A stretch of DNA of 64,000 nt from Bacillota bacterium (GCA_030705825.1 JAUZPR010000004.1:222-64221), one strand, 5' to 3'. Positions 32,412 to 42,780 are shown, counted from the first letter of the stretch. The notes: generated by a model not told the origin, from the letters alone. Numbers and translations are program-made.

Positions 32412-33284
32412 ATGGAATTGATAGCTGCTGATGATTGGAAGGACTATGAACTTTTAGATACAGGTGATGGTGAAAGGCTTGAAAGATGGGGAAAGATAAT
32501 TCTCAGGCGGCCCGATCCTCAAATAATATGGCCCCGTGCAGGTGGAGAAAAACTATGGGCCAAGGCTGATGCTCATTATCATAGGAGCCAGAGCGGAGGG
32601 GGCCAGTGGGAGTATATTAACAAGATTCCTGAAAAGTGGACTGTTTCTTATGGTAAGCTCTCATTTAATATAAAACCTACGGATTTTAAACATACAGGAC
32701 TTTTCCCCGAACAGGCTGCCAACTGGAAATGGATAATGGATAAAATCAAATCGTCATCCAAACAGGCAAATATACTCAATCTTTTTGCATATACCGGCGG
32801 CGCAACTGTTGCTGCCGCATATGCCGGTGCCGAGGTTTGTCATGTTGATGCTTCAAAGGGTATGGTAGGCTGGGCCAAGGATAACATTAATCTGTCGGGT
32901 TTGGGAGAAAAGCCGGTTAGATTTATAACCGACGATGTTATCAAGTTCGTTCAAAGGGAAAAAAGAAGAGGACATTTATATGACGGAATAATAATGGACC
33001 CTCCATCCTACGGGAGAGGACCAAAGGGTGAAGTATGGAAAATAGAAGATGCTTTGTATGGGTTTGTTGAAGAATGTGCAGGAATACTGTCTGATAATCC
33101 GCTGTTTTTCCTTATTAATTCATATACGACAGGATTTTCTCCGACAGTGCTTGAAAATGTACTAAAGCTGCTTGCAGGCAGAAAATTCGGAGGTTCGGTA
33201 AGCTGCGGCGAAGTTGGAATCCCCATTACCGCATCAAAGCTAATTTTGCCCTGCGGCATATACGGACGTTGGGAAAAAATATAG
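32412..33284 (+). CDS. Class I SAM-dependent (rRNA-type) methyltransferase.
   Basis: NLFAYTGGATVAAA (SAM motif I), HVDASK and IIMDPPSYGRG (motif IV). The layout resembles RlmI/RlmK-type C5/N2 RNA methyltransferases. Confidence 0.75.
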   Translation: MELIAADDWKDYELLDTGDGERLERWGKIILRRPDPQIIWPRAGGEKLWAKADAHYHRSQSGGGQWEYINKIPEKWTVSYGKLSFNIKPTDFKHTGLFPEQAANWKWIMDKIKSSSKQANILNLFAYTGGATVAAAYAGAEVCHVDASKGMVGWAKDNINLSGLGEKPVRFITDDVIKFVQREKRRGHLYDGIIMDPPSYGRGPKGEVWKIEDALYGFVEECAGILSDNPLFFLINSYTTGFSPTVLENVLKLLAGRKFGGSVSCGEVGIPITASKLILPCGIYGRWEKI

Positions 33285-33286
33285 AA

Positions 33287-33314
33287 GTTCGGAGTTAAGA
33301 GTTCGGAGTTCAGG
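33287..33314 (+). repeat. Four tandem GTTNRGR heptamers (GTTCGGA GTTAAGA GTTCGGA GTTCAGG), the same family as the array at 42449.
   Basis: Read directly. Starts 3 nt after the methyltransferase stop codon. Confidence 0.8.
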
Positions 33315-33479
33315 GTGTTACTTGTAGGGGCGGCTGCCCACAGCCGCCCGTTTAGGATATGGGTATAGGGAACGGCGCCACGTGTTTCTGTATATATCGG
33401 GGCAGATTCCATATCTGCCTGGGTAAAGAACCAGGGTAATAAATTCCCTTCCCACAATGCGATGGGGGAAGGGCCAGGG

Positions 33480-34172
33480 ATGAGGGTTAGGAATTTGAAA
33501 GCTGAAGACATTAAGATTATATATGAAGATAATCATCTGCTTGTAGTTGAAAAACCGGTAAATATTCCTTCCCAGGAAGATGAGTCGGGCGATGCCGATA
33601 TGCTTACCCTTCTCAAAGAGTATATTAAAAACGCCTGCAATAAGCCGGGAAATGTTTACCTTGGCCTGGTACACAGGCTTGACAGGCCTGTAGGCGGAGC
33701 CATGGTTTTTGCAAAAACCTCAAAGGCTGCTTCGCGCCTGTCAGAGCAAATAAGATCGAGGGAATTTAAAAAGACATATCTTGCAGTAGTTAACGGGGCA
33801 CCCGCAAAGCATGGAAGTTTAAAAAACTATCTTTATAAAGATAATAAAACCAATATTGTAAGTATCGTGAATGAAGGCAAGGAAGGGGCAAAGCTTGCCC
33901 TTTTGGATTATGAAGTGGTATCATCTGTTAATAATTTAAGTCTTGTCAAAATAAATTTAAATACAGGTCGTTCACATCAGATTCGCGTTCAATTTGCAGG
34001 TATAGGAAATGCTCTTTACGGAGACAGAAAATATGGAGTAAATTCAAGTAAGGACGGGCAACAGCTGGCTTTATGGTCTACAAGCATTTCTCTGGCACAT
34101 CCTACGTTAAAAGAAGTAATGACTTTCTCAAGCAACCCGCCTCGTGTATATCCATGGGATATGTTTATTTAA
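33480..34172 (+). CDS. RluA-family pseudouridine synthase.
   Basis: IIYEDNHLLVVEKP and LVHRLDRPVGGAMVFAKT (HRLD catalytic motif), plus GRSHQIRVQ. The start is uncertain: ATG 33480 follows GGAAGGG, and ATG 33462 is the alternative. Confidence 0.8.
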   Translation: MRVRNLKAEDIKIIYEDNHLLVVEKPVNIPSQEDESGDADMLTLLKEYIKNACNKPGNVYLGLVHRLDRPVGGAMVFAKTSKAASRLSEQIRSREFKKTYLAVVNGAPAKHGSLKNYLYKDNKTNIVSIVNEGKEGAKLALLDYEVVSSVNNLSLVKINLNTGRSHQIRVQFAGIGNALYGDRKYGVNSSKDGQQLALWSTSISLAHPTLKEVMTFSSNPPRVYPWDMFI

Positions 34173-41605: not shown

Positions 41606-42448
41606 ATGAAGACAATTCATACTGAAGATATTATAAAGGCTGTCGAAAAGATTGCCGTAGAAGCAAATTATTATTTGAACAGCGATATATATGAGGCATT
41701 AAACAGAGGATTGGAACAAGAGGAATCGGAAATCGGAAAGGATATTTTAAGCAAGCTCTTAAAAAATGCCGAGATTGCCGGAAAAAGGAATATGGCTATT
41801 TGTCAGGATACAGGTATGGCGGTAATTTTTGCGTCTGTCGGACAGGATGTACATATTAAGGGTGGGAGCCTTACCGATGCAATAAATGAAGGAATACGCA
41901 GAGGATATGGAAAAGGGTATCTCAGAAAATCGGTGGTAAAGGATCCTATAGAAAGAGTAAATACAGGTGATAACACTCCTGCAATCATACATTATGATAT
42001 AGTTGAGGGTGATACACTTAAAATAATCATAGCGCCCAAAGGTTTTGGAAGCGAGAATATGAGCGCACTGAAAATGCTTAAGCCTTCAGATGGTATCGAA
42101 GGTGTTAAGAACTTTATAATCGATACGGTAAATAATGCAGGCCCTAATCCATGCCCACCGATTGTTGTGGGAGTCGGTATCGGGGGAACTATGGAGAAGG
42201 CTGCAATTTTGGCTAAAAAGGCTTTACTGAGGCCTATAGATATAAGAAATGATATAGAATATGTATCGACTCTTGAAAAGGAAATGCTGTCTAAAATCAA
42301 TGATCTGGGTATAGGTCCTTCCGGTCTTGGAGGAAGGGTCACAGCTCTGGCTGTAAATATTGAGGTTTTTCCAACTCACATAGCAGGTCTTCCGGTAGCA
42401 GTGAATATAAACTGCCACGCAACAAGACACGCGGAAGCGGTTTTATAA
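41606..42448 (+). CDS. Fe-S hydro-lyase alpha subunit (class I fumarate hydratase / L(+)-tartrate dehydratase type).
   Basis: [29 protein letters not shown] and [13 protein letters not shown] are signature blocks of the alpha (N-terminal) domain. Confidence 0.85.
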
Positions 42449-42780
42449 GTTAGGAGTTTAGGGTTAGGGGTTTAGAGTTAGGAGTTTAGGGTTAGGGGTT
42501 TAGAGTTAGGAGTTCAGAGTTAGGAGTTCAGAGTTAGGAGTTCAGAGTGCGGAGTTCAGAGCTCAGGGTGGAGAGTTTTCAGAGTTTAATGTTAAGAGTT
42601 TAGAGTTTAAAGTTAAAAGTTAAAAGTTGAAGTTCGGGGTTTATTGTTTAAGATTTGAACCTCAGAATTTTGAACTCCCTACAGCGAACACCGAACTAAT
42701 AGTCTCTGAATCCCAAATCACAAAAGCCGAACCGAAAACTCCGAACCGCGAACTACATACTCTGAACTTGCCAATCTGAA
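42449..42780 (+). repeat. Intercistronic array of degenerate GTTNRGR heptamers (42449 to about 42660), followed by an inverted, complementary array (about 42661-42780).
   Basis: Starts immediately after the alpha-subunit stop codon. The 28-nt unit GTTAGGAGTTTAGGGTTAGGGGTTTAGA occurs twice (42449-42504). The 14-nt unit GTTAGGAGTTCAGA occurs three times (42505-42546). Decaying copies follow. The second half reads as the reverse complement of the same family (TCTGAACT, GAACTCC, CCGAAC). Confidence 0.9.

Follow-up and report, generated by a model that had tools for sequence, protein, structure and literature searches.

The GC-rich, multi-hairpin spacer that separates an RNA methyltransferase gene from an RluA-family pseudouridine synthase gene in the window (the whole stretch of DNA analysed here, 64,000 nucleotides) belongs to a type of genomic repeat already known; the host phylum is unusual. 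The reading best supported, to which we assign a probability of about 0.85, is that positions 33285-33494 are a lineage-specific insertion, consisting of a heptamer array, a BIME-like cluster of REPs and an additional hairpin repeat (hp3), between two genes that ancestrally abutted and were coupled. Each part of the spacer belongs to a repeat family of the genome, the REPs have the anatomy of their class, RAYT-type transposases with cognate REPs are encoded elsewhere in the genome, and the insertion is missing from relatives; the REPs would have been moved by these RAYTs, and effects at the RNA level are conceivable.

Composition of the spacer and its absence from relatives

The genes and repeats of the region, together with a second heptamer array further along the window, are as follows.

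32412-33284, + strand: gene for a SAM-dependent RNA methyltransferase (RlmI/RlmK-like domain; Pfam PF10672, E 4e-16)
33286-33313, + strand: four-unit heptamer array AGTTCGG AGTTAAG AGTTCGG AGTTCAG, RGTTNRR family (TRF period 7, 3.7 copies)
33324-33352, + strand: REP of subfamily A ('hp1'), intact, GTAGGGGCGGCTGCCCACAGCCGCCCGTT, with GTAG tag, 9-bp G+C stem, CCCA loop and 3' GTT
33328-33349, + strand: hairpin 1, GGGCGGCTG-CCCA-CAGCCGCCC, 9-bp G+C stem
33365-33390, + strand: REP of subfamily D, decayed, ATAGGGAACGGCGCC...; consensus GTAGGGAACGGCGCCCTCGTCGTTCC
33396-33423, + strand: REP of subfamily B ('hp2'), decayed, ATCGGGGCAGATTCCATATCTGCCTGGG; consensus GTAGGGGCAGATTCCATATCTGCCCGTT; ~23 family copies
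33401-33419, + strand: hairpin 2, GGCAGAT-TCCAT-ATCTGCC, 7-8 bp
33444-33490, + strand: hp3 repeat, hairpin TTCCCTTCCCACAATGCGATGGGGGAAGGG with a G-rich tail CCAGGGATGAGGGTTAG, four G-tracts, no GTAG tag
33446-33473, + strand: hairpin 3, CCCTTCCC-N12-GGGAAGGG, 8 bp
33462-34172, + strand: gene for an RluA-family pseudouridine synthase, given as the longest ORF (Pfam PF00849, E 1e-32; TIGR00005, E 1e-49)
42448-42640, + strand: second heptamer array, RGTTNRR family, starting at the stop codon of its upstream gene

The methyltransferase, whose protein also gives partial matches to NCBIfam models of 23S rRNA methyltransferases, ends in a TAG stop codon (33282-33284), and the heptamer array begins 1 nt after it. 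The first-pass annotation had described heptamers and three hairpins in this spacer, in a stretch richer in GC than its surroundings. All of these are present at the positions given, and the GC content amounts to 52% over 33285-33494 and 55% over 33324-33490, against 37.6% for the window and 38.4% for the genome. Two minus-strand ORFs, 33008-33511 and 33318-33674, run across the spacer; neither matches a Pfam family, and both were treated as spurious.

A BLAST comparison of the spacer with its own genome, that of an uncultured low-GC member of the Clostridia (Bacillota) assembled in 242 contigs (3.65 Mb), reveals no second whole copy, and every separate module proves to be a dispersed repeat. 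The modules recur in varying combinations and orientations in ~100 unrelated intergenic regions. Three of them share a common design, in which T-GTAGGG is followed by an 8-9 bp G+C stem with a loop of 3-6 nt, the closing stem and, often, GTT. The subfamily A copy is intact: its 29-mer occurs in identical form on contig C126 and inside a RAYT gene on contig C235, and the family numbers ~26 copies. The subfamily D copy has undergone a G to A change in its tag (ATAG) and degradation of its 3' arm, and its 14-nt core TAGGGAACGGCGCC exactly matches six intact D copies. In the subfamily B copy, stem and loop are intact and both the GTAG tag (now ATCG) and the 3' GTT have been lost, which leaves one of the three REPs with its tag (33324-33327).

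The fourth module, hp3, belongs to a homogeneous family of 18 copies (TTCCCTTCCCACAATGCGATGGGGGAAGGGTTAGGGATGAGGGTTAG), 16 of which lie no more than 100 nt from a GTAG REP; since hp3 has no GTAG tag, its tie to the RAYT is by association only. The 3' arm and tail of hp3 carry four G-tracts, GGGGGAAGGGNNAGGGATGAGGG, in the window (33464-33486) and in all other copies. These tracts fit the canonical G-quadruplex motif, and the predicted quadruplex would compete with the hairpin. All four modules, the three REPs and hp3, lie on the + strand, with none of the alternation in orientation that characterizes BIMEs; the stretch is a mosaic, yet in direct orientation, and is BIME-like only.

Among the options raised in the first-pass annotation was the cargo of a miniature mobile element bounded by heptamer repeats. 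A mobile element is the closest of these options, but the spacer is not one cargo, because nowhere else in the genome does the 33320-33480 core recur in full, and its modules recur separately. That a single MITE-like element bounded by heptamers moved here as one unit is largely refuted and must be regarded as highly improbable. On the left the stretch does open with a heptamer array, and on the right there is a heptamer-like run, GAGGGTTAGGAATTTGAAAG (33482-33501); in addition, whole spacers elsewhere in the genome are often enclosed by heptamer arrays in inverted orientation. However, the right-hand stretch, which overlaps possible RluA starts as had been noted, is the conserved tail of hp3 rather than a heptamer run, terminal inverted repeats are absent, and the two heptamer stretches have the same orientation. 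The spacer is not bounded by heptamers, and the array at the left edge represents a separate class of tandem repeat that often adjoins REPs.

Comparison with relatives points to an insertion at a junction that was formerly tight. The order methyltransferase-RluA is kept in 148 of 180 related loci, and the methyltransferase stop and the codon aligned with RluA residue 17 are separated by a median of 16.5 nt in related loci compared with 225 nt here. In the two closest genomes, which belong to the same family and whose methyltransferases are 78-80% identical to this one, the junction reads ...TAA-g-TTG-AAA-ATA..., so that RluA there starts 1 nt past the methyltransferase stop. No closer relative, above 80% protein identity, was found in genome and metagenome contigs. 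The spacer is missing from the orthologous junction in all relatives examined, and ~200 nt have been inserted here. The distribution of the repeats themselves is equally restricted: the REP pattern has 28 matches in this genome and none in 36 of 40 relatives, and the four-unit heptamer pattern has 138 matches here and none in 37 of 40.

Other lineages carry different repeats at the same methyltransferase-RluA junction. These include GGANAGN heptamers (locus L045), AGTTGGA heptamers that begin at the stop codon (L136), a hairpin element present in duplicate (L097), long palindromes (L145, L169 and L033) and direct repeats. These were acquired independently, and the junction is evidently permissive.

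The GTAG REP superfamily and its cognate RAYT genes

A hairpin-filtered scan combined with a BLAST census defines a superfamily of GTAG REPs with ~150 copies in at least six subfamilies. Its members are units of 26-29 nt that share the GTAG tag, a G-C foot and often a 3' GTT, and the tag is present in 126 of the 148 BLAST-defined copies. The REPs (151 copies) are spread over more than 80 contigs, and 144 of them are intergenic according to crude ORF calls. Stems differ between subfamilies by compensatory changes that keep the pairing; the covariation count used copies pre-selected for hairpin formation, which makes the percentage of pairing circular. Stem positions that depart from Watson-Crick pairing, read on the GTAG strand, are G.T 70 times and A.C 16 times, and these events are not independent, because many G.T pairs are inherited from a subfamily consensus.

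The superfamily has a marked positional bias. Divergent spacers contain only 6 of 131 classified copies against ~32 expected (p = 1.4e-9), spacers between convergent genes are enriched (36 copies, p = 9e-7), and 74 of the 89 copies between co-directional genes lie in the sense of the genes (p = 1.5e-10). Clusters in direct orientation that mix subfamilies, as in the window, are common in this genome. A different arrangement is displayed by the REPs of subfamily E, in which GCGAAC…GTTCGC is paired with GTTGAC…GTCAAC in REPIN-like, head-to-head inverted doublets 15-30 nt apart (contigs C13, C199, C213, C217, C72 and C85).

A search of the genome with the Pfam Y1_Tnp profile returned four genes, one of them the RAYT gene on C235 and the other three of a longer type. 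Together with a second homologue, the RAYT genes are the following.

C235:11331-11810: RAYT gene 1, 159 aa, intact, with HIH and YYDH motifs (PNHIHLIL, RGYYDHVIR)
C2:47169-47532 and C133:4-299: RAYT gene 2, split by a contig break, with one in-frame stop (TAA)

The product of the gene on C235 passes the cut-off of Pfam PF01797 (30.5 bits; cut-off 23), and its best NCBIfam match is NF047646, 'REP-associated tyrosine transposase', with a score of 65 bits where the equivalog cut-off is 80. A sequence search of solved structures (phmmer) with the RAYT gave nothing significant and did not recover the E. coli TnpA_REP (4ER8). In the segment C235:11294-11810, a subfamily A REP lies 13 nt upstream of the RAYT ATG, and the ORF itself contains an inverted, in-frame REP (…HLILELHDNGRLWAAAPT…) immediately downstream of the HuH motif and ahead of the Tyr motif. 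This in-frame REP is identical to the 29-mer of the window and encodes ...HDNGRLWAAAPT... in the protein. The second gene is arranged in the same manner, with subfamily E REPs inside it and just 3' of it; the contig break that splits it falls at the repeat. RAYT homologues were found in 7 of 41 genomes in a first search of relatives, in which the own genome is counted, and hairpins were detectable at eight homologue loci, each of which has its own GTAGGGGC hairpins, in inverted pairs in six cases.

Three longer Y1_Tnp genes with C-terminal extensions (C61:5127-6559, C10:11469-11804 and C193:10512-10847) are probably of the TIRYT or subclass 2.1 type. They are flanked by a different palindrome (GAGTCAGGGGACTGTCCCCTGACTC for the copy on C61) and not by GTAG REPs.

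An in-frame REP between HuH and Y is reported to be unique to TnpA_REP subclass 2.4 (RAYT group 4), and the GT[AG]G tag and three G-C foot pairs are part of the combination of features of the same subclass (Quentin et al. 2018, PMC6006769). HuH and Tyr motifs in a Y1_Tnp-like core, the in-frame REP and the three G-C pairs of the foot are all found here, and the RAYTs of this genome appear subclass 2.4-like, an assignment made by features and not by phylogeny. The repeats themselves display several features by which REPs are recognized, namely a short palindrome, the GT[AG]G tag, dispersal in many mostly extragenic copies and a cognate RAYT flanked by inverted REPs of its own type (REPtron). 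On this basis, the REPs would be non-autonomous elements that spread as single-stranded DNA hairpins through the action of the HuH/Tyr transposases of the genome, which would recognize the GTAG tag at the foot of the stem; the proposed substrate is single-stranded GTAGGGGCGGCTGCCCACAGCCGCCC. Successive insertions into a permissive site may have built the cluster in the window, and copies that lack the tag would be frozen.

The closest published counterparts are the GTAG REPs associated with subclass 2.4 RAYTs (PMC6006769; Di Nocera et al. 2013, PMC3733652; Nunvar et al. 2010, PMC2817692). Common to both are the 5' GTAG tag, the G+C-rich stem of 8-9 bp whose bottom three pairs are G-C, the presence of ~150 mostly extragenic copies in several subfamilies, the preference for co-directional and convergent spacers, and RAYT genes that are flanked by inverted cognate REPs and contain an in-frame REP between HuH and Tyr. 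The host, however, is different, being an uncultured low-GC member of the Clostridia (Bacillota): the only taxa listed with GTAG REPs in the survey of Di Nocera et al. (PMC3733652) are Proteobacteria, Cyanobacteria, Chloroflexi and the PVC superphylum, and for subclass 2.4 abundance is described in Cyanobacteria and Bacteroidetes, with a 'scattered' occurrence in other groups (PMC6006769). Further differences are that clusters here mostly associate heterologous subfamilies in direct orientation, and that many copies have a 3' GTTNRR flank beside heptamer arrays.

The spacer also resembles the BIMEs of E. coli, in which REPs of types Y, Z1 and Z2 are combined with linker motifs. Both are mosaic intergenic clusters of REP subtypes and short motifs, with hp3 as the extra motif here, and both are often located inside operons, but BIME REPs alternate in orientation whereas all four modules here point one way. 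The REPtron of E. coli rayT (yafM) differs in that its TnpA_REP, of subclass 2.2, is encoded by a gene that contains no REP. The inverted doublets of subfamily E have their counterpart in the REPINs of Pseudomonas fluorescens (Bertels and Rainey 2011, PMC3116915), unlike the REPs of the spacer, which are tandem singlets of different subfamilies.

Heptamer arrays and their association with REPs

The RGTTNRR core recurs in 88 arrays of at least three units in the genome, compared with 0-15 for permuted cores. Their first unit often lies 0-10 nt past a stop codon, and convergent or inverted pairs that span a whole spacer are frequent. The array at 42448-42640, correctly assigned to the same family by the first-pass annotation, shares this core. 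Between 42448 and 42700 there are ~25 RGTTNRR units in several sub-patterns, followed at about 42670-42700 by a short inverted run (…GAACTCCCTACAGCGAACACCGAACT…).

Cyanobacterial STRR are a further example of intergenic tandem repeats of heptamers. Comparable repeats have been described with the units GGGAATC in Xanthomonas and GGGGAYT in Nostoc (Rehm et al. 2015, PMC4692102) and TAACTGA in Beggiatoaceae, Cyanobacteria and Bacteroidetes (MacGregor 2015, PMC4679880). The arrays described here share with all of these their degenerate 7-nt units, their intergenic position, often at or near a stop codon, their frequent convergent pairs and their lineage-specific distribution. They differ from the Xanthomonas, Nostoc and TAACTGA heptamers in their unit, RGTTNRR, and in their significant co-location with GTAG REPs; the repeats studied by Rehm et al. 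(PMC4692102) are generally not associated with mobile elements.

This co-location is strong. Of the 52 spacers that carry heptamers, 23 also contain a REP, compared with 66 of the 1939 remaining spacers (odds ratio ~20), an association that holds after control for spacer length and type (p <= 1e-12). For 16 arrays, a REP of the same orientation follows on the 3' side. The 3' flank of the REPs has a consensus, GTT-N-A/G-G/A, that resembles one heptamer unit and is present in 24 of 109 copies, compared with a background of 0.36% per position, and one relative (G011) combines a RAYT, similar REPs and AGTT heptamers. All of these observations speak for heptamers and REPs as products of one RAYT-driven process, in which the RAYT makes the arrays or the arrays are the target of insertion. 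Such a common process is nevertheless unlikely. Among the 141 other genomes of the order, the richest in heptamers (G137, G070, G077 and G007) have no homologue of this RAYT, which argues that heptamers do not depend on it, and genomes with the RAYT overlap with heptamer-rich ones in two cases against 0.6 expected (p = 0.12), so that production of heptamers by the RAYT was rejected as an explanation. Moreover, the GTT flank is about equally frequent in REPs far from arrays and near them, and a preference for permissive spacers shared by the two repeat classes could produce the co-location. Insertion of REPs in phase into the arrays was likewise rejected, the phase of REPs relative to adjoining arrays being inconsistent on inspection.

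The resemblance of the GTTNRR unit to the REP 3' flank, and of GTTAGG to the GTAGGG tag, suggests a further proposition, that in this genome RAYT-mobilized REPs insert preferentially into RGTTNRR arrays, which would serve as landing pads, or that arrays and REPs have a recognition motif in common. Targeting of heptamer arrays by REPs may occur, and the proposition as a whole is quite unlikely. If true, it would join heptamer arrays and REPs, two intergenic repeat classes of bacteria that have long lacked an explanation, in one single-strand-DNA transposition system. The literature records both repeat classes from xanthomonads and cyanobacteria, possibly as a result of the same link.

Other heptamers were also encountered. 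The reversed control pattern (RRNTTGR, four units) has 27 matches in one relative (G002) and 14 in another (G013), where it represents a different heptamer family, and heptamers of the AATTGAR or CAGTTGA type adjoin REPs in the own genome (contigs C172, C195 and C231).

Possible consequences for RluA and the operon

Three start codons are available to RluA: ATG 33462, inside the loop of hp3, ATG 33480 and TTG 33495. Homology with the N-termini of relatives favours ATG 33480 or TTG 33495 as the putative start, and both are located inside or just after the hp3 tail. A Shine-Dalgarno-like GGGGGAAGGG, formed by the same letters as the 3' arm of hp3, lies 6 nt before ATG 33480 (GGGGGAAGGG-N6-ATG), and GAGGG, also derived from hp3, lies 9 nt before TTG 33495 (GAGGG-N9-TTG). 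The hp3 tail now probably provides both the ribosome-binding site and the start of RluA. With ~200 nt parting the two genes, RluA would have to initiate from this hp3-supplied region, and the translational coupling of methyltransferase and RluA would have been lost through the insertion.

The + strand of the spacer is predicted to fold as RNA with a minimum free energy of -78.7 kcal/mol (z = -2.7 against shuffles) into four hairpins, one of which, at about 33363-33394, is additional to the three described by the first-pass annotation; the antisense strand gives -57.9 kcal/mol (z = -1.9). The features of the spacer exceed chance: each hairpin is an exact or near-exact copy from a dispersed family (blastn-short E 1e-5 to 1e-14). 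Rfam contains no relevant match to either strand, whether 33000-33800 is searched with permissive filters or the whole window at gathering thresholds, and one noise match is all that appears up to E = 10. A scan of 33285-33500 for promoter and terminator consensus sequences found neither. The sequence 3' of hairpin 1, GTTTAGG, has no U-run of the kind required of an intrinsic terminator, and since the hairpins lack a U-run, read-through is likely.

Several of these features could also be read as those of a functional cis-acting RNA under selection, such as a structured leader, an attenuator or an element of RNA processing or stability for RluA, and a small structured RNA or leader had indeed been suggested at the outset. 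The four hairpins are stable on the sense strand, REPs are mostly oriented in the sense of the genes and avoid promoter-bearing spacers, wobble pairs favour the sense strand, and the 3' arm of hp3 can sequester the SD-like GGGGGAAGGG just before ATG 33480. In E. coli, REPs are reported to stabilize upstream mRNA and to cause termination (background in PMC6006769). A dedicated element is very unlikely, however, since the stretch is missing from the same junction in all relatives examined, the same modules accompany ~100 unrelated genes, decay is visible in two of the four hairpin modules, and neither an Rfam match nor a U-tract terminator is found. Any RNA effect would accordingly be a by-product of REP insertion and not the function of a dedicated device. 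By analogy with E. coli, hairpins in the operon mRNA may block 3'-exonucleases or modulate RluA translation, and REP effects on mRNA stability or on translation of RluA are possible.

Under the favoured reading, a lineage-specific insertion of dispersed repeats, a puzzling GC-rich multi-hairpin spacer is explained as ordinary repeat biology. A full REP/RAYT system of subclass 2.4-like type is thereby documented in one uncultured low-GC genome of the Clostridia, whose phylum is absent from the main survey of GTAG REPs. The locus would be a clean natural example of a REP insertion that breaks a translationally coupled pair of genes, with the repeat itself probably supplying the initiation region of the downstream gene, and the co-location of REPs and heptamers provides a clue, open to testing, to how both repeat classes arise or are targeted.
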